Shown: positions 5,849 through 63,100 of the stretch, in pieces
Layout of the letters: every line of letters starts with the position of its first letter
How positions within the stretch are numbered: the first letter of the stretch is position 1
Virus record (IMG/VR): IMGVR_UViG_3300028833_000054
Location: 182,482-246,481 of that record
DNA: 64,000 bases
Direction: 5' to 3' (one strand)
From: a virus
Lineage: Duplodnaviria; Heunggongvirae; Uroviricota; Caudoviricetes
Made by a program: the position numbers and the translations under genes
Notes under the pieces: generated by a model
What the model was told of the DNA's origin: nothing
The model's input: only the letters and a program-made list of their open reading frames with translations
The model's database searches: none

Positions 5849-6841
5849 ATGGCATTATTAAATACTGAATATTCTGAAGTAATGAATTTTATTGCTATTC
5901 GCAGGTATCTTGACCTTTCAAAGGGCATCATAAATACTTGTAACGGTTATATCAATAAAACTTTAATTACTTATGGTCAAGGTGACACAAAAGATGCAGA
6001 ACATTCAAATGAAGATATTTTGAAATCAAAAATAGGTGATTTTGTCGAAAAGATAAAAAGATACACAAACATTGTAACAACTCTTACTAAACACATAGGA
6101 GAGTTGACTGAATTGATGAAATATTGTGTAGACCATATAAAGTATTATAGTGCTAAATATCTTATAAAAGAAATTCAATTATTGGGTTTAAGAATAAAAG
6201 CAATTGTAGTCAATATTAAAATAAAGATTGCACAAGCTTTAAGACAAGTTCTTGTAAATATTCTTCACGGAAAAGCAGCAGCTATCACAAATGCACTTGT
6301 AGCTGCAATCATATTAAAAGTACAAGTTATAGGACAATTAATTGGTGTAGCATTGGCAGCTATTGATAGTTTATTAAATATGCTTCCTCCTATGATAACT
6401 GTAAAACCTCATACTATGGCATTCTTCCCAACTCCTAAGAGTATGTCAAAGGTTGACCTTGTTCCAATCAATACAAATAGAAGTATCTGTGAAAGACTTC
6501 CTGAACCTGTGAATGTAGCTATAAGAGAAGCAGTAAAGATTACTGACAAATTGAATGTACCTATAAAACTAGCAATTGTAGCTGCTTGTGCTGCAAGTGG
6601 AATTGCTCAGGCTTCAAGCAAGAGTCATGAATTTAATATTATCGGTTGTAAACGTATAAACTTAATAGACCCAAAGAAGATAATAAAAGCTATAGAATTT
6701 ATTGTTGCATTAATTCCTATACCGCAAGCACTACCAAAGTATGAAAAAATTTCAATAATCAATCTTGGTTATCTTGCTTGGTTATTAACTACATTTGAAT
6801 TTGGCGGAAAGCGGTCATTTGGAATGATGGGCATGCCATAA
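5849..6841 (+). CDS. Hypothetical protein (Ile/Ala/Lys-rich, partly hydrophobic)
   Basis: 330-aa plus-strand ORF, flanked by a TATAAATA box (5810-5817) and a downstream hairpin terminator. No recognisable motifs. Confidence 0.4.
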   Translation: MALLNTEYSEVMNFIAIRRYLDLSKGIINTCNGYINKTLITYGQGDTKDAEHSNEDILKSKIGDFVEKIKRYTNIVTTLTKHIGELTELMKYCVDHIKYYSAKYLIKEIQLLGLRIKAIVVNIKIKIAQALRQVLVNILHGKAAAITNALVAAIILKVQVIGQLIGVALAAIDSLLNMLPPMITVKPHTMAFFPTPKSMSKVDLVPINTNRSICERLPEPVNVAIREAVKITDKLNVPIKLAIVAACAASGIAQASSKSHEFNIIGCKRINLIDPKKIIKAIEFIVALIPIPQALPKYEKISIINLGYLAWLLTTFEFGGKRSFGMMGMP

Positions 6842-9189: not shown

Positions 9190-9432
9190 TTAATCCTTTT
9201 TAGCGTCTAAAATATCATCGAGCTTCTCTGCTTTGACTGATACGATACTCCACTCATCCATGCAATGCTCGAACTCTTTCTCAACTCTGTCTGCAGCTTC
9301 CTGAGGAGAACCACAATTAGTAACCAAATATGTTTCTCTTGATTTCTTGATTTTAGGTTCACCCTGCTTGTTGACGATACCGGTATCTTCTTCAATAGAT
9401 ACTGTAACTTTGTAATACTCTGTAACTTTCAT
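9190..9432 (-). CDS. Hypothetical protein
   Basis: 80-aa ORF. Confidence 0.4.
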   Translation of the reverse strand: MKVTEYYKVTVSIEEDTGIVNKQGEPKIKKSRETYLVTNCGSPQEAADRVEKEFEHCMDEWSIVSVKAEKLDDILDAKKD

Positions 9433-9435
9433 TGT

Positions 9436-9720
9436 TTATTTAATTAAAATTGAACTTTCTTCTTTCTTTTCTTCTGTTTCACCAAGGATTTCCTTAGCAG
9501 CTGATTTGCTTACAAATTCATCAGGAATTGTACCACATTTATCGCAAACATAAACAGGAATAGGATACAATTCTTCTTTGCCAGTAGGACTAACAAGAGC
9601 TGACAATTTCTTAAGAATAATAGCTTCTCTAAAAACTTTGCTTCCACATTTCGGACAAACAACATTAGGAGATTTATAAATCGCCTTTGCTGTATTCAAC
9701 ATTTGTAAATTATCTGCCAT
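9436..9720 (-). CDS. Zinc-ribbon protein
   Basis: Two CxxC pairs: CPKCGSK ... CDKCGT. Confidence 0.45.
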   Translation of the reverse strand: MADNLQMLNTAKAIYKSPNVVCPKCGSKVFREAIILKKLSALVSPTGKEELYPIPVYVCDKCGTIPDEFVSKSAAKEILGETEEKKEESSILIK

Positions 9721-9735
9721 GATTATATAAATTAT

Positions 9736-10437
9736 TTATGCATTGATTTCTGGGTCATCTTTATGAATATACTGTTCAATAAACTTGAAATGCCTCTCAT
9801 AAATATGAATACTTCCACATGAAAAAATTATTTCAGGATAAAAATCAACATCAATATTGTTGTCTCTTAAATCCTTTACCAATTTGTTTGCAACATACTG
9901 ATGCCAAGCTAAATCATTCCTGAATCCAAATATTGCATCACAGCTTCTTTGATAAACAATGTAAACAAGCTTTTTATTTCTGACAAACTGATGTGTATAA
10001 CAAGTACACATAAAATCTGACATTCCATTCTTGTTATATTCATACTGCATTTCAGGACGAGTATAAATCATAACAGCTCTTCTTGTATAAGGGTCATCAA
10101 TAAGTTGTCTCAAACAATTTCTGTATTGATTTTTATTCTCTTCACTAAAAATACACCAACCATAATTTGAATTGATGAACCCGTCTTTGTCAGCAACTTG
10201 TTTCCAAACTTCTGGAACTTTACCAGGAATATCATATACATTCAAAGACTGTGACAAATACCAACTAAGTTCTCTTTCAACATAATCTTGATTTACTTGA
10301 TGAAATATTGTATTGTCAGTAGCAATGAAATTCTCACCGACAATTTCAACTGTCTTCCTTCCTTGACTGTCTACTGTAAACTCACCATTCTGATATTTCT
10401 TTGCAAACTCGTGTCTAATATCTTCTACTGTCTTCAT
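9736..10437 (-). CDS. ThyA-fold pyrimidine hydroxymethylase, dCMP-hydroxymethylase type (T4 gp42-like)
   Basis: Strong similarity along its length to the thymidylate synthase/dCMP hydroxymethylase fold: KTVEIVGENFIATD, INSNYGWCIFSEEN, RRAVMIYTRPEMQYEYNKNGMSDFMCT (catalytic Cys), YQRSCDAIFGFRNDLAW. The FGFRND position carries Asp (cytosine-specific dCH type) rather than the Asn of ThyA. Length 233 aa, like gp42 and unlike 264-aa ThyA. Confidence 0.7.
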   Translation of the reverse strand: MKTVEDIRHEFAKKYQNGEFTVDSQGRKTVEIVGENFIATDNTIFHQVNQDYVERELSWYLSQSLNVYDIPGKVPEVWKQVADKDGFINSNYGWCIFSEENKNQYRNCLRQLIDDPYTRRAVMIYTRPEMQYEYNKNGMSDFMCTCYTHQFVRNKKLVYIVYQRSCDAIFGFRNDLAWHQYVANKLVKDLRDNNIDVDFYPEIIFSCGSIHIYERHFKFIEQYIHKDDPEINA

Positions 10438-11057
10438 ATCAATTCTACATTCATTTCTTTTAACTTAGAGAGGATTTCATTACAGATATCATCAATATTA
10501 CGGTAATTACCATCTACTGTCTCTACATTGATTTTCATATAGTATCTCGGATGCAACCTATCCATAATTTCATTAAACAATTTAACCTCTCTTGTAACTG
10601 TCTTCAATCTTTTTTCTGGGTCATATTTTGATGTAAAAGACTTGTCATCATCATGAGATATAACAAATTCTGGACTAGCATCGAGATGAATTACAACTGG
10701 AGTAAAATACAAATTTTTGTTATGAATATCTCTTATCATTTCAAAAATTTTATCTGGGTCACCATTTCTGTAAATTTGTCCATACACATATTCACCAATA
10801 TGACTTCTGTCCATAAATGCGATTGTTTTATTACATCTCTTAAGAACATATTCTTGCATTGCCATTGTACTGCATTTTACAACTGCTTGCTTGAATGTTT
10901 CTCTTTGAACTTCATTTTGGTCTTCACCTTCTTCACATTTCGGCCCAGTAGCATGCATAAGAAAAATATCTGCAACGTTCTTATACTTATCTGCTAATTT
11001 GTTAATGATTGTGCTTTTACCAAGGTTGTCAGCTCCTTCAAATATCAATGTTACCAT
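10434..11057 (-). CDS. Thymidylate-kinase-family dNMP kinase
   Basis: P-loop IFEGADNLGKST and DRS motif (FMDRSHIGEYVYG). 207 aa. Overlaps the hydroxymethylase gene by 4 nt. Confidence 0.65.
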   Translation of the reverse strand: MVTLIFEGADNLGKSTIINKLADKYKNVADIFLMHATGPKCEEGEDQNEVQRETFKQAVVKCSTMAMQEYVLKRCNKTIAFMDRSHIGEYVYGQIYRNGDPDKIFEMIRDIHNKNLYFTPVVIHLDASPEFVISHDDDKSFTSKYDPEKRLKTVTREVKLFNEIMDRLHPRYYMKINVETVDGNYRNIDDICNEILSKLKEMNVELI

Positions 11058-11144: not shown

Positions 11145-12206
11145 TTACTCTTCTTCTTTGTTAGGAAGATTGACCTTCTGCAAAGTGTCAGACAAAACAA
11201 TTCTGTACTTGCCGTTGTTTTCGAGAATGTCTGAGATGAATGCACGCATTTCATCATTGACTCTAAATTCGTGATGGTCAAATCTCTCTTCGAAATCCTT
11301 GCTCATTACACTGCGGTGAATAAGACCGCTGAAGATCCATTCTCCTGCATTGTCCTTGAATTGGACAAATACGCCATTCTTTGAAGAACCAGTAACTTTA
11401 CAGCTGACCTCTTGTCCAATTGTAAGTTCTTGTTCAATCTTGGAAGGAAGAATAATTTCGAGATACTTCTTGTAGCTGACAACAAATCCAGAGAAAGGAA
11501 GATAGTTGACAATCATAACAGGAATTGTCTTTCCAAGAAGAGCTTCAAAATCAGTAAGAATTCCAGCAGCTGCAAGTGAACCAGGCAAGAAGCACTTAAT
11601 TCCTTGGATATCAACGATATAACCACCGTTATTGATTTCCTTTACAGTTGCATAGTAAGCAGAAGTAGGATTCTTAATCTGTGCAACAAACTCTGCTTCA
11701 ATCTTAGCAAGATGACCGTCCCAAAGTGATACACGACCATTGTCCATAACCTTAGCATTAAGGTTGCTTTCAATAAGTGACTTCTTGAAATCAGGACGAG
11801 TCTTTACAGCAGCAACAAACAAATCGACAGACCTGCAGTTGAGAGTATCAAGATACTGTTTCTCCTTATTGAGGTCAATGACAGCTGACATTCCATTGAC
11901 AGTATCAATTGAAATCTCATGGTCAGAAACTGCTCTGACATCAGTAACAGAATAAACTGTTCCCTTCAATGCGTCCTTAGGATTGAACTTGTTGCTTCCA
12001 TCCATGTGTGCCTCATACATATCATACAACTCTTGTGCATAAGGCTCATGACAATAAACTTTGTCGTTTTGTGATTTTACCTTGACTGATTTGTTGACGA
12101 CAAGAGAATTACCTCCCTTATAACCGTTGTCATACAATGACCAATCAAAATTGTCATCTGACTTGGCAAGTATTTTACCAGTTAAAACAGTCTTTGTTTT
12201 TCCCAT
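11145..12206 (-). CDS. S1-domain RNA-binding protein (at least two S1/OB repeats)
   Basis: GTVYSVTDVRAVSDHEISIDTVNGMSAVIDLNKE and GQEVSCKVTGSSKNGVFVQFKDNAGEWIFSGLIHRSVMS...KYRIVLS fit the S1 pattern G.V.G.V....G.FV.....GL.H.S ... LS. Confidence 0.5.
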   Translation of the reverse strand: MGKTKTVLTGKILAKSDDNFDWSLYDNGYKGGNSLVVNKSVKVKSQNDKVYCHEPYAQELYDMYEAHMDGSNKFNPKDALKGTVYSVTDVRAVSDHEISIDTVNGMSAVIDLNKEKQYLDTLNCRSVDLFVAAVKTRPDFKKSLIESNLNAKVMDNGRVSLWDGHLAKIEAEFVAQIKNPTSAYYATVKEINNGGYIVDIQGIKCFLPGSLAAAGILTDFEALLGKTIPVMIVNYLPFSGFVVSYKKYLEIILPSKIEQELTIGQEVSCKVTGSSKNGVFVQFKDNAGEWIFSGLIHRSVMSKDFEERFDHHEFRVNDEMRAFISDILENNGKYRIVLSDTLQKVNLPNKEEE

Positions 12207-13158: not shown

Positions 13159-13185
13159 AAAAAAGCAAGAATGATTAATTCTTGC
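13159..13185 (-). terminator. Terminator-like hairpin overlapping the 3' end of the tail-fibre gene
   Basis: gcaagaat/attcttgc 8-bp stem around the stop codon, with a 6-nt A-run on the plus side (U6 on the minus transcript). A second hairpin, aagcat/atgctt, lies at 13128-13144. Confidence 0.45.
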
Positions 13186-14161
13186 TTGATTTCAAAGTTT
13201 CAATTTGTGCTTCTAATTCTGTTATTCTCTCATGTAGTTTATCAATTGCGGCAAGAGCAATAACAGAAAGTTTAGAATAATCTACTGCTAAATGACCGTC
13301 TGTAGATGTTACAATTTCTGGATATAATGCTTCAACAGTTTGAGCAGAAACACCAATATTTGAAATCTTATCAGGGTCTGATCTCCAATAGAATATACCC
13401 TTTTTAATTGTTGCAAGATTATCTAAATTTATATCAATATTTCCAGTAAATGTCTTAAGAGTCTCATCTGAAGCGTGATATAAATTTCCAGCTCTGAAAT
13501 AAATTCTTTGGTCATAATATAATTTACTTGGAGCTGTATCATTGTCATATACTGTATTATTTGCAACTAAATAATAATTAGTAGTATTATCATCAATATT
13601 TGCTTTTGAAAGCATTGCTCCTGCCGCACCCCAAGTTATAGCTCCACTAGAATTCAAAATAAGTGCTTGATTGTATGCTTTTTGTTCTGGAACTTCATAA
13701 TAAACTGTATTTTGTTCACCGGTTCCAGTAATTGACAAAATAGGAACATATTTTGACTGAGGTGTAACAGTTCCAGCATTGTATAATGAATCTGCATATT
13801 TTACCCTTGAGTGAAACTGTCCATCTCCTCCAAAAACAGTAGTTGCTACATCACCCGCTGAACTTCCACCTGTGCCTTCATTCTTTGCAAGAACTTTGAA
13901 CTTTCCTGCAGCATTGTTACTATCACTGTTATCCCATATCAAAAGATATTGATTATCTGATATTTTACTTTCTGCGTTTTGAGAAGTGTTAAAAATATCA
14001 GTATTCATCTTTTCATATATCAAATTCATTCCTGCAGTCTCTTTGTCCTTTTCACATATACAATCAAGCAATGTAAAAGGTGCTAATGTATTAGCAGCAT
14101 AATCTACCAATGTTTGCGGAGTATAAGAACCACTTTGGAATTTTATATTGTTGTCTGCCAT
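13175..14161 (-). CDS. Tail fibre/spike protein with C-terminal intramolecular-chaperone (peptidase S74-like) domain
   Basis: The C-terminal ~110 aa, ASDETLK...ISNIGVSAQTVEALYPEIVTSTDGHLAVDYSKLSVIALAAIDKLHERITELEAQ, matches the auto-cleaving chaperone domain of endosialidase-type fibres (Ser-Lys dyad, GFIAQE-like, VDY motif). Confidence 0.6.
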   Translation of the reverse strand: MADNNIKFQSGSYTPQTLVDYAANTLAPFTLLDCICEKDKETAGMNLIYEKMNTDIFNTSQNAESKISDNQYLLIWDNSDSNNAAGKFKVLAKNEGTGGSSAGDVATTVFGGDGQFHSRVKYADSLYNAGTVTPQSKYVPILSITGTGEQNTVYYEVPEQKAYNQALILNSSGAITWGAAGAMLSKANIDDNTTNYYLVANNTVYDNDTAPSKLYYDQRIYFRAGNLYHASDETLKTFTGNIDINLDNLATIKKGIFYWRSDPDKISNIGVSAQTVEALYPEIVTSTDGHLAVDYSKLSVIALAAIDKLHERITELEAQIETLKSSKN

Positions 14162-14199: not shown

Positions 14200-16053
14200 T
14201 TAAGACCTTCCTCTCAAGGTAATGTTTATTGGTCCTACAAGAGAATCCAATGATGTTCCATATTCAATTCCTTGTGATGAAGTAAATCCTCCTCTGAATA
14301 TAGGTTGTAAATCATTTATTTCTACAATATTTCCTAATTTGTCTTTTACCAATCTTGTAAGAACAATATCACCGTATTCATCTATTCCGTAATTTCCTTC
14401 ACCATAATAATATGAATTGTTCTTATCAGCATCAAAGAATATTGAAACAGAGTCAACACCTGCAACAGATTCTACTATTCTTACTAAATCAGAAACTGGA
14501 AGTCTGTCACGTCTTGTATTCTTAATAAAGTAATTTGACAATACAGTAATTATAGCACTTTTAACAGCATTGAAATTATAATTAGCCCAAATTTGAACAA
14601 AGATATTAACTGCAAAGTTTACAAATATAGGGTCAAGAATTCTGTTTTCTACTGTTATAATCTTTTGTCCTGAGTCATCAATAAGATTGATAATTCCTTG
14701 TTTCTCATCTTCTGTCAATAAGAATCTATCCTTTGAACAAGTGAAATAATTTTCACCAGTATTTATACGTTTGCTTATGTCAGGAACAAGATACAAATAA
14801 ACAATATTGTCATCTAACTTGGAATCATCATATTTCTCTTTAAGAATATCATACTCATTCTGTGCTTCAATCATTTGGTCATAAGCTTCTTCTGCTGCTT
14901 CAGAATTCTTTCCTGTGAGATTAACTTGTGCCATATAAGTTTCTTTTGTATACTCATACTTGTTCTTTGCTGTCAAATATTCTTTTTCAATCTTTGAATC
15001 TTCAACAGTATCAAATCCGCTGAATGCATCAATAATTGAGAACATATTCAATTTTGTTAAGAAATATCTGTAATTAATAGCATTTGCAAGAACAAAGCTT
15101 CTTGAAACATGAGGTGCAAGTTGTCTTGTTATTTCTATTGCTTCTTTTTCTGCACCAAACAATACTTCAGATGCAGATGAAAGAGTATATATACTGTTCA
15201 AATCAATTATATTTCCTTCAACATCATAACCACCTTCATCAAATGTCCAATAATTAACATCATCATTTTCAAGAATATTTCCAAGTGGACCAGCAGAAAC
15301 AATATATTCACAAAGAATTGATGCTCCCTTTTCAGGAACTGCACCAGAATTTCCTGTTCCAAAGAATACATCTATTCCTCCGTTAAAGGCAGGTTTGACA
15401 ATGCATGCTTTTTGCTCATATCCCATATCTAATAATGATGGAACTGCCATCCAAAGTTCTCCATTAACATAAATATTAACAAAGAAATTATCAACAAGTT
15501 CATTTGCTTTATTTGCAAAATTGAAAGATTGCAAAGCATAACCAGTTCCAGTAGCTTGTTGATACTTCAATTCACCTTGAATAATAGGAATTTCTATCTT
15601 ATTGTCATGAGCACCAACAGTAAGTCTCATATGTTTTCCAGGAAAAACTGCCATATAAGTCAAACCGTTTGAAGTATTTCTAATTTTTGTGAAATTGTTT
15701 ATTCTTATTGTTTGACCTGCTAAATCACTGCTATTATTGTATGTCATATACAATGCACCTCTTGCAGCAAGACCGGTTGAAGGAGTGTGACCTGCAAGAG
15801 AAGCAAGACCTCTGATAGATCTCTCGTGGAATGCTGTAGCGATATTAAGTTCAGTTATAGATGTTTCAATATAATACAATATCATTCTTCCGAGATGAAG
15901 AACAACATTTATAAGTTGAGCAAAAGGTGAAGCGATTGTAAATTCTTGATTGTTTAACTTATAAACATTTCTCAAATATTCATATACATCATCACGAAGC
16001 TCATTGAATCTTAATCTATTCGCTTTAAATATTTTAAATTCAGGAGTCATCAA
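14200..16053 (-). CDS. Hypothetical large protein (possible virion/baseplate component)
   Basis: 617-aa ORF adjacent to the fibre gene. No clear motifs. Confidence 0.45.
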   Translation of the reverse strand: MMTPEFKIFKANRLRFNELRDDVYEYLRNVYKLNNQEFTIASPFAQLINVVLHLGRMILYYIETSITELNIATAFHERSIRGLASLAGHTPSTGLAARGALYMTYNNSSDLAGQTIRINNFTKIRNTSNGLTYMAVFPGKHMRLTVGAHDNKIEIPIIQGELKYQQATGTGYALQSFNFANKANELVDNFFVNIYVNGELWMAVPSLLDMGYEQKACIVKPAFNGGIDVFFGTGNSGAVPEKGASILCEYIVSAGPLGNILENDDVNYWTFDEGGYDVEGNIIDLNSIYTLSSASEVLFGAEKEAIEITRQLAPHVSRSFVLANAINYRYFLTKLNMFSIIDAFSGFDTVEDSKIEKEYLTAKNKYEYTKETYMAQVNLTGKNSEAAEEAYDQMIEAQNEYDILKEKYDDSKLDDNIVYLYLVPDISKRINTGENYFTCSKDRFLLTEDEKQGIINLIDDSGQKIITVENRILDPIFVNFAVNIFVQIWANYNFNAVKSAIITVLSNYFIKNTRRDRLPVSDLVRIVESVAGVDSVSIFFDADKNNSYYYGEGNYGIDEYGDIVLTRLVKDKLGNIVEINDLQPIFRGGFTSSQGIEYGTSLDSLVGPINITLRGRS

Positions 16054-16133
16054 TAACTAATATCATTTGAATATTTATCTTGCTAATTTGTATACCAAAA
16101 ATCTCATACAACCAATAAATATACAAATATAAC

Positions 16134-16520
16134 TTGATTTGTATGAAGAAACTATTTGCTTTATTAGTTGCAGTTTCATTATTATCAGGATGTGGTCTTA
16201 TTCAAAAGATTTCACATAAGGACCAAAATAACACTGATGTAGAAAATACTCTCGGTGTTTCTTATATGAGATTTACTATGAACAAAGTTCTTGGTATTTC
16301 CCAGGTAGATTCTATGATTGTTGCAGACCATCTTACTCCTCTTAATGAATGGCTTTATGCCCCAATTGTTGGAGAAGATAAGAAGGCAATTTCTCAGTAC
16401 ATGTATATAAAATCTCTTGAAGAGGACAATGAATTGATTTATGTAGTAACTCAGACAAAAGTTGATACTTTGTTTAAATGTACAAAGAGAATAACAGAAA
16501 AAGTAATGCTTGATGAATAA
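16134..16520 (+). CDS. Lipoprotein (signal peptide plus lipobox)
   Basis: MKKLFALLVAVSLLSGCGL. The likely true start is at 16143 (MKKLF). Confidence 0.55.
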   Translation: MICMKKLFALLVAVSLLSGCGLIQKISHKDQNNTDVENTLGVSYMRFTMNKVLGISQVDSMIVADHLTPLNEWLYAPIVGEDKKAISQYMYIKSLEEDNELIYVVTQTKVDTLFKCTKRITEKVMLDE

Positions 16521-17196
16521 TATGAAAGAGATGGTATTCGGTTTTGTTCCAACACAATTTGATGGTACTGAATATGTAATTACTGAGGAGAATCTTGGTA
16601 CACTTCCTCTCCCTAATGCATATTCATATCTTCCATTTATGTCTCCTATTATGGACCAAGGCAGTGCTTCTACTTGTGTTCCTCACTCTATCAGTGCAGT
16701 ATATGATTATTATATTGCAATGAATCATCCTGAACTTACAAATAATGGTAAATTTGCAAACTCTGGTATTTCAATCCAACAAATTTATAAAAGCAGAACA
16801 AATTACGGTGATGGAATGTCATACAAAGAAGCATTTAAGTTCTGTCTTCACAAAGGTGTAGTATCAGAGCAGGATTACAAAAACAAGAAGTTTGACAATC
16901 CTATGAAGATTTACATGTACGGCCGTGTAATGTCAATTGGTGTTCTTAAAAGAGCAATTGTTGCAAACGGTCCTTGTCCTATTGCTACAATGGTAAGAAG
17001 TCTTGATAGAGATGATTTCTGGAACGGCAGTGGAAACTATGGCGGCCATGCAACTTGTTTGATTGGATATTCTGACAAGAAAGAAGCTTTTATACTTAGA
17101 AATTCTTGGGGAAGGTCATTTGGTTCTGGCGGATATGTTTGGTTCCCTTATTCTGATTTTGAGAAGATTCTTGAAGCTTGGACTGTGTTAATATAA
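16510..17196 (+). CDS. Papain-like cysteine peptidase (C1 family)
   Basis: QGSASTCVPHSISAV (Q-G-x-x-x-x-C...S, catalytic Cys), GGHATCLIGYSD (His) and FILRNSWGRSFGSGGYVWFPY (Asn-Ser-Trp-Gly), in papain order and spacing. Confidence 0.7.
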   Translation: MMNNMKEMVFGFVPTQFDGTEYVITEENLGTLPLPNAYSYLPFMSPIMDQGSASTCVPHSISAVYDYYIAMNHPELTNNGKFANSGISIQQIYKSRTNYGDGMSYKEAFKFCLHKGVVSEQDYKNKKFDNPMKIYMYGRVMSIGVLKRAIVANGPCPIATMVRSLDRDDFWNGSGNYGGHATCLIGYSDKKEAFILRNSWGRSFGSGGYVWFPYSDFEKILEAWTVLI

Positions 17197-17223
17197 AAAA
17201 TCCTATATAAAAAATTTCCTATA

Positions 17224-17246
17224 AGAGAGGCTAAGCCTCTCTTTTG
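17224..17246 (+). terminator. Rho-independent terminator-like hairpin
   Basis: agagaggc/gcctctct 8-bp stem with a 3-nt loop, followed by tttgcatttt. Confidence 0.55.
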
Positions 17247-17293
17247 CATTTTATATATTGACCAATAAATAATAAAATAGAAATTTTCACTCA

Positions 17294-17545
17294 ATGATTA
17301 AGAGAAATAAAGTGAATGCAAGGTATATCTCTGAACACGCACAAGATGTTTATACTGATTTGGGATTTGACTATAGAGGAAAATTGTTTGCACGAACATC
17401 TTCCCCTATAATATTCCGAAATATAAACAACTTTTATTTCATTGGTCAAATAGATAAGATGATATCATTACTAGTAGATATGACAAAACAGATAAAGTTG
17501 CAGTATATGATTTCATTACATAAAAATGATAGAAACGTAAATTAA
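17294..17545 (+). CDS. Hypothetical protein
   Basis: 83-aa ORF immediately upstream of the giant gene, separated from it by 1 nt. Confidence 0.35.
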   Translation: MIKRNKVNARYISEHAQDVYTDLGFDYRGKLFARTSSPIIFRNINNFYFIGQIDKMISLLVDMTKQIKLQYMISLHKNDRNVN

Positions 17546-17546
17546 T

Positions 17547-20500
17547 ATGAGCCAATTCAATTATACTAACTTGCATTTCTTTGATAAGCATGGAATAGAA
17601 CTTCCAATAACTTACAGCTCAAATTACATCGCAGAAATAATAAATGAAAGCGGTGATAATGCTGTATTCTATGGTTTGAAGGACTGTTCTACCGGAGAAT
17701 TTGAATTCATAAAGAAAAAAGCAGGAAATCGTTTTTCAGATAAAAGTGAAGAGGTTTGCCATTTAACAGTAGGAAACACTACATATGAAACTACTGCAAC
17801 CGTTGTCAAAGAAGATACTCCTGCATTTATTGGAGGAGAACAAACTACAGTAAAATATGTAAATGAAATTTCAGATATTGTTGTAAGTGATGATATTCAA
17901 GCAAAGATAGATGCTCTTCCTTTTCCTACTATAACTTTATCAAGTTCATTGTCTCTTCCTCCTGTATCTGTAGATTTGGTAGAGACACAATCAATTTATG
18001 TATTATGTGAATACAATAATGCTTTTGCAAAATTAGCAGAAGTTACAGGTGAAGATATTATTGATTTCAAAAATCATTATAAGATTCTTTTTTATCTTGA
18101 CAATAGAAGCCAAAAGGATTTCAGATTTTTCAGTGTAGATAATTCTGAATTGAAGTGGTCTGACAGAGCTATATTAAATTTCAACAAAGGAGATTTCAAA
18201 GTAAATATTGGTTTCTGTGGAGCAGAAGAAGGAATATATGAACAGATAATGTATGTTTGTATCCTTAAAGATTATAAAGAGTCTGACCCAACTTCTGGTG
18301 AAATTTATCCTATTGGTTCTATCAAATTAGAAGCAGAAGCAATAGGAGAAGATGAAAGATATAGAACATTATTCTCAAACTTCGGTATTCCAGACCCTAT
18401 CCATTATCAAGAAGTTTTTGCAAATACTTCTCTTGATGAGGGAAAAATGGACTACATGAAGCTTAACGAGAATTCTAAGAAATTATTCTTATCATATTCT
18501 GAAATATTCTCTTACATTGGTTCTTATAAAGCATTGATGAATGCAGTCAATGTGTTAGGTTATCATGATATTTTCTTCAAAGAATGGTATAAAGAAACTG
18601 GAAAAAATATAGTTTCAAAGGGTTATGTTACATATGATATGAGTTATAAATCAGATGCAAATGCTAACATAATTGACAATATTCCAATTGAAGAAAGAAT
18701 ATCATTGAAGAAGCTAAATTGGCTTTCAATGGTTTATAGAATAAACAAAGAGTTGTTAGATGAAGCAGAAGACCAATGGGGTTTCCCACAAATCATTGAA
18801 ATATATGACTATAACAATGAAGAGATAATAACAAAATTGTATAGTTTAAAGAAATGGTTGGAGAAATATATCATTGGATTAAACTGCAAAATCATTGATG
18901 TTTCAGGCGAAGGAATATATTTTGAGAGATATAAGCTTGATACTTACGGAATGTATCAGCAAGTGTTTGATTGGAACAACTCAAACAATCTTATTCCTAC
19001 TGTTGTAACTTCAGATGAAAATGGTCCTCTTGATTATTATCTTATTGACTCATCTGCATATTTGAATGTAGATATTGGACTATACAATGCTGCAACAATT
19101 GAAGATTATAAAAACTATACATTAGAGCAGTTCTGTGATGGTTATATTGGTACTGATAATATATATCATCAGAGAATGCCTGATGATGAGGAGGCCGCTT
19201 CTGTATATGTTGGAAGAACATTTGAATGCCTTAACAGATTTGAAGATTATGAATTGAAAGCAACATCATACGGTGAAGATTTCTTATTTGGAAAAGAATA
19301 TCTTGCAAAAGATAGTGCAGGAATTAGAATCCATGACAATGAAATCTATTTCAATCCATTTGAACTTCTTGAAAAAGAGCAACAAGCTGCATTTACTCTT
19401 CTTCCATTCATTCAACTTGAAAAGGCAAATATAAGAAAGAAAGAGACTAATTGGAACAATTCAGTAAAATACAGAATTAATCCTGAATTGACTGATGATT
19501 CATTAGAATCATATACAATAAAGAATTTGGAAACAGGAGATACATATTCAAGCACTGATTATATCATGCTTATTCCTCCTACATATTCTGAAATGGATGA
19601 TGTTGTCACAATAACTAGTTTCTCTGGGACAGAAATAGAAAAAGATGTGTATTATGTTCCAGAATTTCAAGAAGATGACTCTTCACTTTCAACAATAGTC
19701 AAGCACAATCAAACTATTAGAACATACGGTTTAAGATATTCAGCAATCAATAAGATGAATATGCCATTATTCTCTATTGCTGGATATGAAGTTGATGGAA
19801 AATCTGATTTCATTGATTTGCAAGAAGAATATTACATTGAAATCCTTGATGGAAAAATGTTGTTCAATGATGTTGAACATGATAGAAAAATATTCTTGAA
19901 TTTCAATTTTGATAAAGAAACAAATGAACAAGAAGTAAAGATAAGCATTATCTATACATCTGACAATTTCAAAATTGAATCATATGAAGATGAAGACTAT
20001 ATTCCTGCATTTATTCCTGGAAATGAATATTCTACATTTGTTGATAATTATGAAAATGATATAGACAATGCAATAATATATGACAATGTTCATTCTATAA
20101 AAGTAATGAACACCGGAGAATTCACTATAGATGTATATGCAAAAGATTTGCAAAACAATATATTTGCAAAGAATTGCGAAAATACAGTAAATGTATATCT
20201 TCCTAATTTCTCAATAAGCACTTATACGAATTCAAGCAATTCCGGTGAAGAACATAATTCAATTGCAGAATATATTTCAGAAGAAGAAAGAACATTCTTG
20301 AGAGATAACTATACAGATTTCTGTATTTACAACAATGCTTATATGATTAATGGATTTGTTAAAACAATTAATGACAGTAACAAAGAATTATCAATACAAT
20401 ATCCATCTTATAGTTATAGTATGCATAACCCAAAGGGTGGTGATTACTTGCATTTCATGAATATATCAGACAGATATTATACAGATGCTGTAGAATTTGA

Positions 20501-23500
20501 AGTAAACTCTACTCTTGATAAGACATACACAGGATATTTTATGGTCCTCGAAAAGAATGGTATCAATGCTTATACGAGAGTTATTGAAGAAAGTGATTCT
20601 CCTGCTTTGCTTGCAATAAGTAATGATATTATAACAGATGAAGTATATTCTGCTGCATCTTATATGTCTGCATTGTATAGTGCTGATAGTAATTTAGATT
20701 ATACAGATGTAAATTTAATATTGTATAACAATCTTGGAAATTATCCTATAATGCAAACATATGCATCTATGGTTAATGCAAATGCTATTCCTTACAGTGA
20801 TATCATTGAAGGATATACAGATGGAAAATATCGTTTGCTTATAGGTGAATATTCAGAACGTTCTTATATCTGGGCTTCACTTCTTGAACATATTGAACAA
20901 GATATTCCAAAGATTATAAATCATTATATTGATGATGCATCAAGTGAGATGATTATTATTCCTGATGATTCATCTTTCAATGATGATGAAGAAGAGTCAC
21001 AAGAAGATGAAGTTGTAATAGAAGAACCAACAGAAGAAGATGTTATCAATGACTGGTATTATATAGAACCACAACCTAGTGATTTTCTTGATGTTGTAGT
21101 AGATTTTGTTGAAAATCTTAAAACTGTAAATATAACAGTTCCTGCAAGTAAAATAGAAGAAGAGGAATTAGAAAATACTCTTGCTGATTTCAAAGAATCA
21201 TTAGAGAATATAATTGATTCTTCTGCAGAATTATATACTTATGAAGATGAAACTTTGTTTGATACTTCAACAGAAGTAATTGATTATATCAAATCTAAAG
21301 TAAATGATTTGTATTATACTATAGGAGATGTTTCTTCTAATTTGTATGTAGATACTAAATCATGTGTATGTTTGAACAATTATGAAACATATGATGTATT
21401 GATGAATATCTATCTCAAAAATATTTTGATAAATGAAGATGATACTGATACTTATGGAATAAAATACATATTAGGAGAACATAATGATTTGTATTCTGGT
21501 ACAGTAGGAGAACAAATATATGCAAAATATAAAGAAGATACAAATCTTGCTATGATGATGTCAAATGCAAAGATAACAGATGATATAATAAAGCAAGTTT
21601 GTTCATCTATTACAAATGCATTAAAAGTCAGAGGAAACAATATAGCAGAAATGCATAGAACATTTATAGAAGATTTTTATTCTAATTATGGAAATATAAC
21701 ATCTGCTTTTACCTCTGCTGTTGAAGTAGAATATTATGAAGAAGATGAGCTTACATCAGCATATTCAATTCTTTTTGAATCTGGTACAAGTAAAAATGAG
21801 TTGAGAAGCTCTGCACAAAAGATAATACTTCATACATTGGAAAGATTAGAAACTTATCCAGATGAAGATATTATACAATTGCAGTCATTTATTCCTCAAT
21901 ATTCTAAAATCTTGTTTGCAATATGTGTTTACATAGCTGATTGTACATTCTACAATATGCAAGATATTGTCGACTACAAAGATACTGCACTTAATTGTCT
22001 TTATGCTGAATATTTAGGAACTTATAGAGATGATGTGATTGTATTGTCATATGAAAATACATTAAAGGTTGCAGGAGGATTATACAATACATTCTTTACA
22101 GATAACGGAAAATTAGATGTAAATTCTGCATTGATTGAAGAATATGATATGACTAATGCAAGTGAATTTAAATTGTATGAAAAAATATTGTATAATTTAA
22201 CATCTCTTACTGCTAAGTTCTTGTCTGATAAATGGGTAACAAAGAACAATCCTAAGAATGAGTATGATGTCCTATATGCAGTTGCAGGAATTATTGCAAG
22301 TGAAGAAGAGGAAGAAACAGAAAATTCTGAATCTAATGAGGAGGAAACCTTTGTAGACAATCCTACTCCTGTATCTGAAAACGAAGAAGAGTCTGAAGAT
22401 GAAGAGACAGCATCATTGTACTACGTAAAGCCAAAAGGAAATGTATATGAAGGTCTATTATATACAAATCCTGTAAATACTGTTACTGCTTCAGGAAGAC
22501 CTATCAGCAAGGTAAACAACAAAAATGTTCTTCCTGATATTACAGCATTAATTCAAAAGCCTTACGTATCAGTATATATTCAGCCTACATGGAAAGCACA
22601 AGTAAGTATATCATTGATAACTCCTGAAAATGCTATTAAACTTGGATTTATACAAAATGAAGATGAATATGAAGAGATTGAAAACAAATATCTTTGTATA
22701 ATGTATTCTAATTCAGATTTCATGTGGCACTTCAGAAAAGGTGAAATGATTAAACTTATATTTGAATCTTTGACAAACAAAGAATATATTGGTCAATCAT
22801 CTTATGAAGTTGTTGGATATGATACTGAAGAACAAGTTGTAATAGTTAAAGGTGCTATCAATGCTGCATATGCTAGAAAAGAGAAACGTGAAGTTTGGGC
22901 AGAATTGCTTATCGATGACCCTAAATTCCCCCAAGCAGATATTGATAAATTGAAGGAATTTGCTAATGCTACAAATGTAGATGAAAGAAAGGTAGAACCA
23001 TTGATAAGAACATATAGATATATGATAGGAAATGATTCTCCTGCAGAAACTACTTACCGCTTGCCTATTAAGAAGTTAAATGGTACTTGGTATTATAAAG
23101 TATTCTATTTCGTCAATGGTATTCCTAGACCAATTGAAACTGTTAAAATTGACCCTCAAGAAAAGGTTAATATGTATATAAGTTATGCTCACAATGCATT
23201 TGTTGATTATACTATGACTGCTAACAAGTCAAAAGAAAACAGTAATGGAACTACTGATTTGTCAATTGATTACAACATATTGAACTGCAGAAAAATGCAA
23301 TTTATAGATGATACCTTTGTAGTATATGCTAAAGAATTTGACATCAATGAAGGCCTTGCAGCATGGATGAACAGTACAGTTCTTGATGAGCAAACAGTAG
23401 GAGAAATCTCAAAGAAGACTATTTACAAATATCGCTCTGAGAACGGATTTGTTCCTATCAAGATTTCTCCAGATTCTCCAAATGTTGCATTTACAGTAAA

Positions 23501-23726
23501 CTTTGAAGATATGGGTATTGATTTTGAAGAATCATATGTACAGTGGAAAGTTTACAGAAAACTTCCAACTAATAATGAAAGAGAATACATGTTTGAGTCA
23601 TTCAATAAAGTATTGTATTTAGATTATGTAGAGCCAGGAATATATGATATTGAGGCAAATGTATTTGATAAATACGGAAACACAGCAACAAAAGTATTCA
23701 AAGGTGCATATAAAGTAACAATTTAA
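17547..23726 (+). CDS. Giant acidic protein (2059 aa), function unknown; possible virion-associated or host-interaction protein
   Basis: Uninterrupted 6.2-kb ORF. D/E/Y/N/I-rich, with poly-acidic tracts (EEEEETENSESNEEE, DDEEESQEDE). No polymerase-type DxDGD or other catalytic motif seen. Confidence 0.6.
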   Translation: MSQFNYTNLHFFDKHGIELPITYSSNYIAEIINESGDNAVFYGLKDCSTGEFEFIKKKAGNRFSDKSEEVCHLTVGNTTYETTATVVKEDTPAFIGGEQTTVKYVNEISDIVVSDDIQAKIDALPFPTITLSSSLSLPPVSVDLVETQSIYVLCEYNNAFAKLAEVTGEDIIDFKNHYKILFYLDNRSQKDFRFFSVDNSELKWSDRAILNFNKGDFKVNIGFCGAEEGIYEQIMYVCILKDYKESDPTSGEIYPIGSIKLEAEAIGEDERYRTLFSNFGIPDPIHYQEVFANTSLDEGKMDYMKLNENSKKLFLSYSEIFSYIGSYKALMNAVNVLGYHDIFFKEWYKETGKNIVSKGYVTYDMSYKSDANANIIDNIPIEERISLKKLNWLSMVYRINKELLDEAEDQWGFPQIIEIYDYNNEEIITKLYSLKKWLEKYIIGLNCKIIDVSGEGIYFERYKLDTYGMYQQVFDWNNSNNLIPTVVTSDENGPLDYYLIDSSAYLNVDIGLYNAATIEDYKNYTLEQFCDGYIGTDNIYHQRMPDDEEAASVYVGRTFECLNRFEDYELKATSYGEDFLFGKEYLAKDSAGIRIHDNEIYFNPFELLEKEQQAAFTLLPFIQLEKANIRKKETNWNNSVKYRINPELTDDSLESYTIKNLETGDTYSSTDYIMLIPPTYSEMDDVVTITSFSGTEIEKDVYYVPEFQEDDSSLSTIVKHNQTIRTYGLRYSAINKMNMPLFSIAGYEVDGKSDFIDLQEEYYIEILDGKMLFNDVEHDRKIFLNFNFDKETNEQEVKISIIYTSDNFKIESYEDEDYIPAFIPGNEYSTFVDNYENDIDNAIIYDNVHSIKVMNTGEFTIDVYAKDLQNNIFAKNCENTVNVYLPNFSISTYTNSSNSGEEHNSIAEYISEEERTFLRDNYTDFCIYNNAYMINGFVKTINDSNKELSIQYPSYSYSMHNPKGGDYLHFMNISDRYYTDAVEFEVNSTLDKTYTGYFMVLEKNGINAYTRVIEESDSPALLAISNDIITDEVYSAASYMSALYSADSNLDYTDVNLILYNNLGNYPIMQTYASMVNANAIPYSDIIEGYTDGKYRLLIGEYSERSYIWASLLEHIEQDIPKIINHYIDDASSEMIIIPDDSSFNDDEEESQEDEVVIEEPTEEDVINDWYYIEPQPSDFLDVVVDFVENLKTVNITVPASKIEEEELENTLADFKESLENIIDSSAELYTYEDETLFDTSTEVIDYIKSKVNDLYYTIGDVSSNLYVDTKSCVCLNNYETYDVLMNIYLKNILINEDDTDTYGIKYILGEHNDLYSGTVGEQIYAKYKEDTNLAMMMSNAKITDDIIKQVCSSITNALKVRGNNIAEMHRTFIEDFYSNYGNITSAFTSAVEVEYYEEDELTSAYSILFESGTSKNELRSSAQKIILHTLERLETYPDEDIIQLQSFIPQYSKILFAICVYIADCTFYNMQDIVDYKDTALNCLYAEYLGTYRDDVIVLSYENTLKVAGGLYNTFFTDNGKLDVNSALIEEYDMTNASEFKLYEKILYNLTSLTAKFLSDKWVTKNNPKNEYDVLYAVAGIIASEEEEETENSESNEEETFVDNPTPVSENEEESEDEETASLYYVKPKGNVYEGLLYTNPVNTVTASGRPISKVNNKNVLPDITALIQKPYVSVYIQPTWKAQVSISLITPENAIKLGFIQNEDEYEEIENKYLCIMYSNSDFMWHFRKGEMIKLIFESLTNKEYIGQSSYEVVGYDTEEQVVIVKGAINAAYARKEKREVWAELLIDDPKFPQADIDKLKEFANATNVDERKVEPLIRTYRYMIGNDSPAETTYRLPIKKLNGTWYYKVFYFVNGIPRPIETVKIDPQEKVNMYISYAHNAFVDYTMTANKSKENSNGTTDLSIDYNILNCRKMQFIDDTFVVYAKEFDINEGLAAWMNSTVLDEQTVGEISKKTIYKYRSENGFVPIKISPDSPNVAFTVNFEDMGIDFEESYVQWKVYRKLPTNNEREYMFESFNKVLYLDYVEPGIYDIEANVFDKYGNTATKVFKGAYKVTI

Positions 23727-23761
23727 AAGTAGATAAATATTTAAAGAAAATTTGATTAAAC

Positions 23762-24103
23762 ATGAGCTATCGTTCTGGTTATACTGGACCACAAGTAAGT
23801 AAAGCCGTTAAATATATGACACATCCTAATGTTGGAACTGTGTTAACATTTGATACATCTGCAAATTTTCCTCCTAGAACAGGCGGAGATGATGCATTAG
23901 ATGGTCCTTATTTTGGTGGAAATGCTGAGAAGTTCTTATTTGTTGATGCAGCAAACAATATGATGTATAGATGGAGACACCTTACCCAAGAACAGTGGTT
24001 AGAAACACACGACAATTTAGATGATTATCCTGAAGACGGATATTCTTATGTACTTTGTTCTGGTGCTGGTTCTGGAGATTTAGTTTGGACTCCACTTGAA
24101 TAA
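23762..24103 (+). CDS. Hypothetical protein
   Basis: 113-aa ORF, followed by a hairpin terminator. Confidence 0.4.
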   Translation: MSYRSGYTGPQVSKAVKYMTHPNVGTVLTFDTSANFPPRTGGDDALDGPYFGGNAEKFLFVDAANNMMYRWRHLTQEQWLETHDNLDDYPEDGYSYVLCSGAGSGDLVWTPLE

Positions 24104-24107
24104 AAAA

Positions 24108-24134
24108 GAGGGATTGCAATTGCAATCCCTTTTA
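24108..24134 (+). terminator. Rho-independent terminator-like hairpin
   Basis: agggattgca/tgcaatccct stem followed by tttaattt. Ends the plus-strand block. Confidence 0.55.
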
Positions 24135-60157: not shown

Positions 60158-63100
60158 TTATTTTATATAATATTCAATATAATTGCTTCCAGGGCCAGTA
60201 GCAGGATATACCTTTGAATCATCTAATTTATCATACAATACTGGAGCAGAAACGTTGTTTATTACAGCATAACCAGGAACAATATCGTGAACAAGTTCGT
60301 TAATTCCGTTATAAATCTTCAACTCATAGAAGTACAAGTCTTGTGCTACATATGCAGTTGGATCTTCATATCTGTAATCAAGAGCATTATTCAAGAAGTA
60401 AGTGTAGTAGATTCTAAGTGGAAGATTTGAAGGAGTATTATTTTCATAACTCCAATTATCAACATTGAATATATTGAAGTTATTAGGATCACTCTGTCTG
60501 TAAATCTTTACCTTATTATCTTGAGTATGACAAATGTCAAGAACTATAATATCACTATTTCTTCCAATATCTCCTGAGAATACTGATGCTGGATTAGTAC
60601 CGTTTGTAGTAGCTACATTCCACTTTGTTGCGGGGCTTCCATTACGGTAAGTGAAGTATCCTGTAAAGATATTAGCTTTACCTGAATGTCCACTACCACC
60701 TCTGTGGAAGTCAGTAACTGAAGTTATTGTGCTCTCATCGTTTACATCATCTGCTGTTGCTGCACCAAACAAAGGTTGAACCTCATACCAGTCTGAGCTC
60801 TTGTTCTTAAAGATATATTCATATCTGTAATTTCCGCAAAGAGGAATTCCACCAAGCTCAAAGTAAGTCAATCCGTTTGCTCTTCCAGGATGGATGTATT
60901 TCAAAGGATTTACTCTTGCTGTTTGAGTGTATTCAGGAGTTGATGTGTTACCACCCCAGCTGTAAGGAATGCTGTCATAGTTTCCTGCTCTTACGCAACC
61001 TTCAAATGATTTCTGTGATTTGCTTGCAACTCTTACAGCGTCAGCAAAGCTACAACCGTAGAAGGTCTTCCAGAATCCAGGTACTCTTGAAATCAATGAT
61101 TCACAACCTGCGAACATTCTCTTAAGAGATACAATTTCAATGTCATCTGCTGGGTGCAAGAATGGAATATCTTCCTCTGAATTGATAGTAGAAAGAAGAG
61201 TACAATTTGCAAATGTTTCTTCGAATGAAACTGCCTTAGTGTTGTAAACGAAGAAGTTAGCAGGCAAAGTAGTTAAATTAGTATTCTTAAAGGTCTTGTT
61301 GAATGAAACAATTTCAACGCAGTTGTTAAACAATCCGCTAGTAGGAATCTGTTCAAGAGTAGTATTCTCAAACAAGCTATCTGCAGAAGTGCAATCTACA
61401 CAAGTCTTATAGATATTACCAACACTTATAAGCTTTGAGTAATCCTTATTGCTTATATTGAATCTTGGCATTGTTCTGAAGACTGCGGCACCGTTTGACT
61501 GGTATGCAACTAATCCACCAGGATTTTCAAGATTTCTAGGAACATCTGCCCAACTTGCAGGGAACAAATCTGAAGAAGTACCAGTACCGAAGCAAGGAAG
61601 TATACCTGAAACATTTCCTTCTGATATTACATGGAACCACTTAATATTCTGAGTATTAGAAGTTCTTTGTACACCATTGATTGTTCTCTCAATAGGAGTA
61701 ACTGTAATATCATATTCAGTATTAGCTGAACGGTAAGTATGGTAAATAACCTTTTCACCATCAGAATCACCAGTTATTGCATCAAGATGTGCATCAGAAG
61801 TTTGTTCTGCAGCATCACCCCAATCAATAATGATAGGTCCTACAACATTGTAGTAAAGTCTTACTGTTGTGTAGTTTCCACTGCCAGTTACTACTGTCAT
61901 GTGAAGTTCTGTTGCTTCATACTCTGTATAATTTCCTAAGTAGTCTCTTGAAATTGATATTGAGTAGTTGAAAGGATCTTCACCAGTTCCAGTAGTAATA
62001 GAACCAATATATTGGCTATATCTACCACCTCTTGTGACCTTGATATCAACATCATCTTCAAGTTCTGTGATAGTAATTTCATGCATTGTATTAGCAAGAA
62101 GCTTAACAGTTGCAGGATTATTAGAAGCAGTAACAATAACCTTGTTGAAAGGAGGTTCTGTCAAGTTTCTAATTGAAGTATTCTGCAAAGACTCAATCAA
62201 CAATCTCTTATCAGTAACCAACTTGTTAGAGTTAAGAACTGTAATATTAGCAGTAATAGGCTTGTAGAATGAAACAGTGTATTCATCATCCTTGCTTATC
62301 TCTGCAGGAAGCTCTTCCATTATGATAGGTGCTGGTTTATTGTAATAGTAACCAGGTTGTTCTGAGTAAGTAGATTCAACATTAACTACAAGACGTCTAA
62401 GACCGAAGCAACCATTTTCAGGGTCATAAACATTTGTTGGCATAGTAATTACACCGACATTTGAAGGTGAGGTCTTAATTCTGTAGATGTTAGAATCTCC
62501 ATCAACTTGAACATCTGCATAACCAGGAATTCTTTCATGCATTCCACGAGTCTCATCTTGCAAGTAAATTACACGAGAAACAATGTTGTAAACGTGGATA
62601 GGAATACTTCTGTTAATAGTAGGAAGATTCTTAGAAGAAATTCTTATTGCAGCTGCCTGAGTTCTTGAAACATCAGCACCAGTAATGCTAAGAGTTCTAG
62701 TAGTAGATGAGTATTCATATGCATTTGCACCGTAGTGAACAAGGTACTCAGGATTTGATACTACGAAATCAAGTTCATCATCTGTTGTATCAGAAGGAGT
62801 GAATACGATTGTGAATGATTGAGTTTCACCTTCATATAATGAAATTCCCTCATTGTAATCAATCTCATGATTAGTAGAATCCATAATCTGAATAGATTGA
62901 AGAGTTGCGCTAGGAGCAATTGAAAGTGATGCACTCATTGTGCTGTACTTGTTAGATACTGCTGAAATATCATAGTATCTTGTACCTGAAGTAGAACCTT
63001 CAAACATTACTTCAACTGAAGAAGATGTCATATTTCTGTATCTCAAATCAGGGTCAATTGTCCATGTAACTCCCTTGTCTGATGCAAGAACGAAGTCATC

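Follow-up and report, generated by a model that had tools for sequence, protein, structure and literature searches.

The stretch of viral DNA analysed here (64,000 nucleotides of the Caudoviricetes record IMGVR_UViG_3300028833_000054, positions 182,482 to 246,481; hereafter the window) raises the question of what task a tailed phage assigns to a single giant protein of 2059 amino acids (aa), encoded by an open reading frame (ORF) at 17547-23726 on the plus strand, that has no family match in Pfam or PHROGs. A first-pass annotation, made without database searches, had proposed an ejected or internal virion protein, a decorative or host-binding protein, or a scaffold. Our analysis points to a different assignment, which we regard as modestly probable: in a jumbo phage with a contractile tail, the giant protein would serve as a hyper-expanded wedge subunit at the periphery of the baseplate, placed in the position of T4 gp7 or P2 gpI and carrying host-facing modules. 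Drawn from gene context and a short motif, this assignment would make it an enlarged variant of a baseplate wedge or periphery protein and not a new kind of system. To our knowledge, hardly any tail machinery has been annotated in gut jumbo and mega phages, the Lak phages among them, and we know of no baseplate characterised in this group.

The ORF runs from an ATG start codon without interruption and encodes a protein of 237.6 kDa with a pI of 4.35. At a G+C content of approximately 30%, stops would make up approximately 8% of random codons (as reckoned from composition), and an open frame of 2060 codons is therefore not explicable by chance. Full-length collinear homologues of 2016-2149 aa were found in seven other assemblies, one of them 99% identical (2059 aa) and six at 54-58% identity, and the N-terminus is conserved across the family (MxxFNYxxLHxFDKxG), which supports the start codon; since these end-to-end homologues come from independent assemblies and the N-terminus is conserved, a frameshift artefact is unlikely, and the ORF is a real, intact gene. 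Glu (9.7%), Ile (9.0%), Tyr (8.0%), Asn (7.9%) and Asp (7.6%) are abundant in the protein, which contains the acid runs DDEEE (aa 1146-1150) and EEEEE (aa 1586-1590); the first-pass description of a giant, acidic protein rich in Tyr, Asn and Ile, with poly-Glu/Asp tracts and no recognisable catalytic motif, was thus correct. The accompanying argument that it is too acidic for a tail fibre proved not to be diagnostic, because the family (median pI 4.61) and two neighbouring gene products discussed below, a gp6-like protein (pI 4.86) and a tail fibre (pI 4.74), are all acidic (median of the other window proteins, 5.71); acidity does not separate the competing readings of the giant protein.

Conservation in related phages, a check that had been proposed for this ORF, revealed a large family of homologues. 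An initial homology search yielded 179 proteins on contigs of up to 360 kb, for which no source gives any name beyond 'hypothetical protein'. When a profile of the core (aa 266-475) was read against 1.84 billion cluster representatives (50% identity clusters), 791 clusters were matched at E <=1e-3 and 294 at E <=1e-30; nearly all clusters among the matches listed are 1200-3300 aa long, and the family overall spans 900 to 3300 aa. The window protein is the founding-type member of a large family without annotation in Pfam or PHROGs. Among cultured or curated genomes, distant members were located by tblastn in the Prevotella Lak megaphages, in LR756500-504 (462-735 kb) and in the Tenacibaculum jumbo phages pT24 and PTm1, and the short members belong here (pT24, 903 aa; LR756500, 998 aa; PTm1, ORF-177, 1013 aa). 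The homologue in Lak-A1 (locus L010, 5074-10491) is open over approximately 1805 codons solely with TAG as a sense codon, which agrees with a report that Lak phages use alternative coding (PMC8346664). The pT24 member, BPT24_246, matches phrog_28177 end to end and is 28% identical to the window protein over aa 258-502; phrog_28177 has no functional annotation, and the window protein itself matches no PHROG. Megablast of the DNA of the giant's locus against 50,697 phage records gave no match, and neither phmmer nor profile searches of PDB sequences, run for the protein itself and for the profiles of the family and of the core, returned more than a chance match (E 0.16). A word-indexed profile search with the core, aimed at distant relatives that bear a name, recovered 13 fragments only.

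The domain layout of the giant was derived from homologue coverage of the query together with two AlphaFold2 monomer models (aa 1-1150, mean predicted local distance difference test score (pLDDT) 75; aa 1100-2059, mean pLDDT 82). This segment-wise structure prediction, likewise suggested in the first-pass annotation, gave immunoglobulin-like (Ig), FN3-like and PKD-like sandwiches, a core of low confidence and a helical insert. The N-terminal ~1100 aa are conserved in the family. They begin with family-conserved beta-sandwich domains (aa 1-265; 17547-18341, like all segments on the plus strand) bearing the motif FNYxxLHxFDKxG, and continue with the alpha/beta core (aa 266-475; 18342-18971), in which the invariant columns of the family cluster and which is conserved out to the Lak, LR7565xx and Tenacibaculum phages. 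Although it is the most conserved region, the core is modelled at a pLDDT of 36-64 only; such a poor monomer model would fit an obligate hetero-oligomer interface. Within the core lies a gpI-type motif (aa 319-354, EIFSYIGSYKALMNAVNVLGYHDIFFKEWYKETGKN; 18501-18608), common to the giant and the hallmark of P2 gpI (Tail_P2_I). The beta-rich middle (aa 476-1110; 18972-20876) comprises Ig/FN3-like sandwiches with a pLDDT of up to 94 and then a less conserved alpha/beta part. It is followed by an acidic all-alpha domain (aa 1111-1585; 20877-22301; pI 4.05) with AlphaFold2 helices at a pLDDT of ~85-97, by a disordered poly-Glu/Asp linker (aa 1586-1625; 22302-22421; pLDDT <50; 47.5% Asp plus Glu, no Lys or Arg) and by conserved C-terminal beta-sandwiches (aa 1626-2059; 22422-23723), in which FN3-like domains follow one another in tandem and the last domain, a PKD-like one, bears the family motif GIYDIExxVYDKxGN. 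When the C-terminal model was compared with the PDB by Foldseek, the lambda tail tip (8iyk_F, E 2.4e-3) and the T5 tail tip (7zn2_e) led the matches as weak strings of FN3 domains, and the PKD domain of AAVR (7wqp_R) was matched at a TMt of 0.62; the helical insert (aa 1111-1585) had no Foldseek match in the PDB. The best structural matches in BFVD were unnamed Myoviridae proteins and a homologue from PTm5; taken together, the fold matches were of a generic kind.

The helical insert is confined to the seven closest relatives, and other relatives hold other modules at this place. Four insertion sites were recognised in relatives (the N-terminus, near aa 700, aa 1110-1620 and the C-terminus), and the modules found comprise a GDSL esterase, four dockerins, PEGA, Head_fiber_dimeric, Flg_new_2, PKD and Ig-like domains; the place near aa 700 is an insertion hot spot, where one relative, P0042, has an insert of 1300 aa (query aa 690-726). 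These modules are of kinds typical of exposed, glycan- or surface-contacting proteins, and the four sites of module exchange plainly suggest themselves as places to look for host-range determinants and to attempt engineering.

The gene neighbourhood links this modular protein with a baseplate gene. The divergently transcribed neighbour of the plus-strand block that holds the giant gene is a baseplate wedge gene resembling T4 gp6 and P2 gpJ (14200-16053, minus strand; phrog_219, E 9.7e-19; phrog_6, E 2.7e-5). Gp6-like homologues stand beside the giant gene in L001 (a 324-kb contig), L007 (a 318-kb contig), Lak-A1, LR756500, pT24 and PTm1, and the linkage recurs in five independent lineages. The two genes are divergent neighbours in the window, L001 and L007; in Lak-A1 and LR756500 (462 kb) the gp6-like gene, a gene for an 83-aa protein and the giant gene are adjacent and co-directional, and in pT24 and PTm1 the giant homologue lies at most three genes from an annotated baseplate wedge gene. 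Furthermore, a 119-aa ORF before the gp6-like gene of LR756500 (locus L011, 3148-3507) gave a weak, near-full-length match to GPW_gp25 (E 0.13), so that the order there is gp25-like (weak), gp6-like, 83-aa gene and giant, equal to the W-J-I order of P2; W-J-I was also the order in 10 of the 10 P2-type loci fetched as controls. Pfam and PHROG scans of the window found no other gpI candidate after the gp6-like gene, where a tail fibre gene already stands (13175-14161, minus strand); its product has a C-terminal S74 intramolecular chaperone (PF13884, E 2.3e-5), and 13 of its 16 PHROG matches are to tail or fibre. Encoded directly downstream of the gp6-like gene, this S74 fibre is a candidate for the fibre carried by the wedge.

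The 83-aa gene (17294-17545, plus strand) ends 1 nt before the giant's ATG in the window, and it precedes the giant in every relative with examined upstream DNA, the Tenacibaculum phages excepted. A terminal N-x-N and a stop 1-2 nt before the giant's start codon are kept from gut jumbo-phage contigs to Lak-A1 and LR756500. Pfam gave no match for the protein, and the PHROGs that it matches are all function-less (best E 1.7e-4); an assembly factor or a small wedge subunit would be conceivable roles for it. The idea that it is a split N-terminal part of gpI was rejected (hhalign P 0.22).

A wedge protein of the gp7 type had been predicted from gene context before the core was scanned for weak Pfam matches. 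In that permissive scan, run member by member, PF09684 (Tail_P2_I) alone recurred as a match in many members, namely in 8 of 19 with a best E of 0.014, and each time one stretch of the core (query aa ~321-368) aligned to profile positions 73-117. The hallmark of gpI is the helix-strand motif hKGTxxAxxxxxxxLGYxxxxxEWW, present as KGTxxAxxxxxxxLGYxxxxxEW(W/F) in all 17 aligned gpI sequences; YIGSYKALMNAVNVLGYHDIFFKEWY in the giant resembles it, aa 319-354 of the giant align to gpI 76-110, and the giant's model places a helix at aa 324-336 and then a strand at aa 342-350. Comparison of a 50-sequence core profile with 17 diverse gpI sequences by hhalign gave P 0.0014 over 35 columns, and the sub-segment aa 309-369 gave P 9.8e-5 with a probability of 58%. 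The score of 28.3 observed for the core against gpI was reached by none of 200 column-shuffled gpI controls (maximum 21.9, median 12.0), and the reversed control scored 11.8. With P2 gpI alone and its close relatives hhalign found the correct region at a non-significant P of ~0.09-0.11, the result being better only with the diverse gpI alignment. The exhaustive representative search showed no short gpI-like bridge among the 150 matches listed. A separate resemblance, of 'IGLN' in P2 gpI to the C-terminus of the core, was rejected as P2-clade-specific and non-significant (P 0.12). The remote homology check put forward in the first-pass annotation thus returned no Pfam, PHROG or PDB-sequence family and, on the positive side, a sub-threshold Tail_P2_I motif; the sequence evidence for homology of the core to gpI is suggestive.

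Comparison with known contractile systems places the giant between likeness and difference. As with P2 gpI, the giant gene comes after a gp6/gpJ-like gene in Lak-A1 and LR756500 and has fibre genes nearby; unlike gpI, which measures 176-256 aa, the giant extends to 2059 aa, and the extra 83-aa gene separates it from the J-like gene. T4 gp7 (1032 aa) is likewise a large multi-domain wedge-class protein encoded next to gp6, and it equals the short family members in size (903-1013 aa), whereas the giant is twice as long and includes FN3/PKD modules and the acidic helical insert; by analogy with gp7, the giant may have a peripheral role in holding fibres or other parts of the periphery. The gp7/TssG-class adaptor fold joins two gp6/TssF chains, with a core bundle and a trifurcation unit. 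The gp7-like portion of the extracellular contractile injection system (eCIS) proteins Alg12, Pvc12 and Afp12 differs in that the gp6-like partner of the giant is a separate gene, and these three proteins gave no sequence or fold match to the giant. The gp7-like part of contractile baseplates is described as laterally exposed, dynamic and fibre-binding, and as a hot spot of evolutionary re-engineering (PMC8894135), and in another source (PMC12923769) Tail_P2_I proteins figure as TssG-like fibre adaptors. The idea that Afp12 carries Tail_P2_I was checked and dropped, as the literature treats the two as alternatives.

We favour the peripheral wedge assignment because of the gp6-like linkage, the I position in the W-J-I order, the gpI-type motif and a core without a confident lone fold, and also because of the exposed sandwich domains, the swappable surface cassettes, the short members of T4 gp7 size, the BFVD matches to Myoviridae proteins and the published accounts of gp7-like and Tail_P2_I proteins. 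Several results weigh against it. The likeness to gpI is limited to ~35 residues, the N- and C-terminal parts of the core not aligning, and the best PF09684 member reached 15.7 bits against a gathering score of 20.6. Pfam scans found no PF09684 match in the window protein itself and no Tail_P2_I match in the Lak, LR7565xx and Tenacibaculum cores, an NCBIfam scan of the core gave no tail_P2_I match, and hhalign of the family profiles against the single T4 gp7 sequence detected no similarity (P values of 0.27 and 0.39). Two loci, L008 and L009, are without a gp6-like gene within 10 kb of the giant; there the giant and the 83-aa gene form a plus-strand island amid replication genes, with a right flank as in the window. 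Finally, the relatives P0042 and P0044 carry Pfam Head_fiber_dimeric, and the ninth BFVD match, a protein of Synechococcus phage S-SCSM1 (E 1.6e-8), goes under the name 'outer capsid protein'.

These last two points speak for a Hoc-type capsid decoration or head fibre, built as an array of Ig-like domains, as do the acidity of the giant and its wealth of Ig-like and FN3-like domains; head-fibre-like appendages are reported in the description of PTm1, itself a carrier of a homologue. We nevertheless hold a place on the capsid to be quite improbable, as the recurrent linkage is to a gp6-like wedge gene in five lineages and not to capsid genes, the gpI-type motif is present, and Head_fiber_dimeric is an accessory insert in few members that is absent from the window protein. 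More serious, if still unlikely, is the proposal that the giant is a receptor-binding fibre or adhesin anchored on the baseplate via its conserved N-terminal region and not an integral wedge subunit. It would be in keeping with the C-terminal FN3/PKD domains, with the swapping of GDSL esterase, dockerin, PEGA and Flg_new_2 modules among relatives and with the FN3-bearing tail-tip proteins of lambda and T5 at the head of the Foldseek matches to the PDB, and gene position gives it room, as the fibre gene follows I in P2-type loci and position cannot tell I from H given the intervening small genes. Pfam and PHROGs, however, gave no fibre repeats, collar, beta-helix or S74 domain in the giant, and the monomer models show discrete globular domains at high confidence where an intertwined trimer would be expected of a fibre; moreover, the most conserved part is the alpha/beta core with the gpI-type motif, and the place after the gp6-like gene is already taken by a distinct S74 fibre gene.

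The three candidates of the first-pass annotation fared unequally in this light. A decorative or host-binding protein comes closest, in that the Ig/FN3/PKD sandwiches and the adhesin and carbohydrate modules of relatives agree with it; the conserved gp6/gpJ-like linkage and the gpI-type motif argue against a free decoration and for a peripheral wedge protein that is integral to the baseplate. It is very improbable that the giant is internal to the virion or ejected, that it is an assembly scaffold or that it lies outside the virion altogether. The great size, the acidity and the lack of a catalytic motif would be compatible with such a role, as would the position of the gene amid replication and nucleotide-metabolism genes in L008 and L009, but the Ig/FN3/PKD domains and the esterase, dockerin and PEGA modules are typical of exposed proteins, and the giant lacks the helical, basic character of a tape measure. 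The window shows no portal, protease or capsid linkage (the portal gene is 19 kb off), and the prohead-type gene context that would support a scaffold is absent. A secreted non-virion adhesin would be disfavoured by the N-terminus (MSQFNYTNLHFFDKHG...), which is unlike a signal peptide as assessed by eye without a predictor.

Under the peripheral wedge assignment, the core (aa 266-475), with its gpI-type motif at aa 319-354, would dock on a dimer of the gp6/gpJ-like neighbour and with it form one of six wedges, in the role of T4 gp7, P2 gpI or the T6SS (type VI secretion system) protein TssG. The flanking beta-sandwich domains would build the outer rim of the baseplate, and the C-terminal FN3/PKD-like domains would point outward together with a lineage-specific cassette, here the acidic all-helical domain on its poly-Glu tether and in relatives a GDSL esterase, dockerin, PEGA, PKD or Ig-like module. 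These outward parts might touch host surface polymers, carry the S74-type fibre encoded beside the gp6-like gene, or do both, and receptor contact would thereby be tied to the ring of wedges by which sheath contraction is triggered; the product of the 83-aa gene would be an assembly partner. It is possible, though on balance doubtful, that Lak-type megaphages and Bacteroidota jumbo phages have their missing gp7/TssG-equivalent in this family, a wedge adaptor turned into a giant modular display platform. If this were true, cassettes would be exchanged at four fixed sites, and host-range evolution would take place inside an integral baseplate subunit and not in detachable fibres. The assignment offers a testable structural role for a family of at least 791 sequence clusters that has so far been without Pfam or PHROG annotation. 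The 83-aa gene and the conserved core would together be a compact marker for the baseplate module in uncultured huge-phage genomes, and the family would be useful for annotating huge-phage tails and for finding probable host-range cassettes.

The giant gene lies in a plus-strand block (16134-24103), noted at first pass as the only sizeable one, of an otherwise minus-strand window; GC skew is positive across 16-24 kb only, and the ORF list is concordant. A further single plus-strand ORF (5849-6841) makes this block the largest but not the sole plus-strand coding region. It encodes 330 aa with no PHROG match, and GC skew there climbs to about zero. The block had also been described as bounded by hairpin terminators, which holds for its right end, where a GC-rich, perfectly palindromic hairpin (AGGGATTGCAATTGCAATCCCT, 24109-24130) stands between convergent genes; it is terminator-like on the minus strand and is followed on the plus strand by TTTTAATTTA. 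At the left end (16054-16133) the genes diverge from an intergenic region that has no hairpin. A second terminator-like hairpin (17223-17243, plus strand) lies inside the block after a peptidase gene and before the 83-aa gene. It sets a lipoprotein/peptidase pair apart from a unit in which the 83-aa gene is followed by the giant and lastly by a 113-aa ORF (23762-24103, plus strand); in L001 a 181-aa ORF occupies the same position as the 113-aa ORF. Two exact copies of the 11-mer ACCAATAAATA are present in the window (16111-16121 and 17261-17271, plus strand; 0.08 copies expected, and two or more copies in 1 of 100 shuffles). Both plus-strand transcription units have one copy ~12-22 nt 5' of their first codon, which makes the 11-mer a candidate shared promoter element; it was not found in the related loci fetched.

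The pair upstream of the internal hairpin consists of a 128-aa ORF (16134-16520, plus strand), whose product starts with MKKLFALLVAVSLLSGC, which resembles a lipoprotein signal peptide with a lipobox, and a gene for a papain-like C1 cysteine peptidase (16510-17196, plus strand; Pfam E 3.8e-9), the start of which is overlapped by the 128-aa ORF. L001 and L007 keep this pair next to the giant, and L008 and L009 lack it; a lysis or host-surface function is conceivable. Three genes downstream of the gp6-like gene, a 353-aa ORF (11145-12206, minus strand) matches an S1 RNA-binding domain over 28 residues (Pfam E 4.2e-8), which is odd for a gene of a tail-fibre cluster; the L001 homologue has an equally faint match. 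In LR756500 an ORF resembling GIY-YIG/NUMOD3 homing endonucleases (9285-10511) stands two genes downstream of the giant homologue. The window holds a second very large ORF (60158-63943, minus strand; 1261 aa, pI 4.87), which matches phrog_9915 only (E 2.2e-10, aa 843-960), and L007 has further giants beside its family member (1-1512 and 14597-23660), namely a 2564-aa LRR protein and a 3022-aa protein without a domain match. It seems that these phages group their giant surface proteins together.

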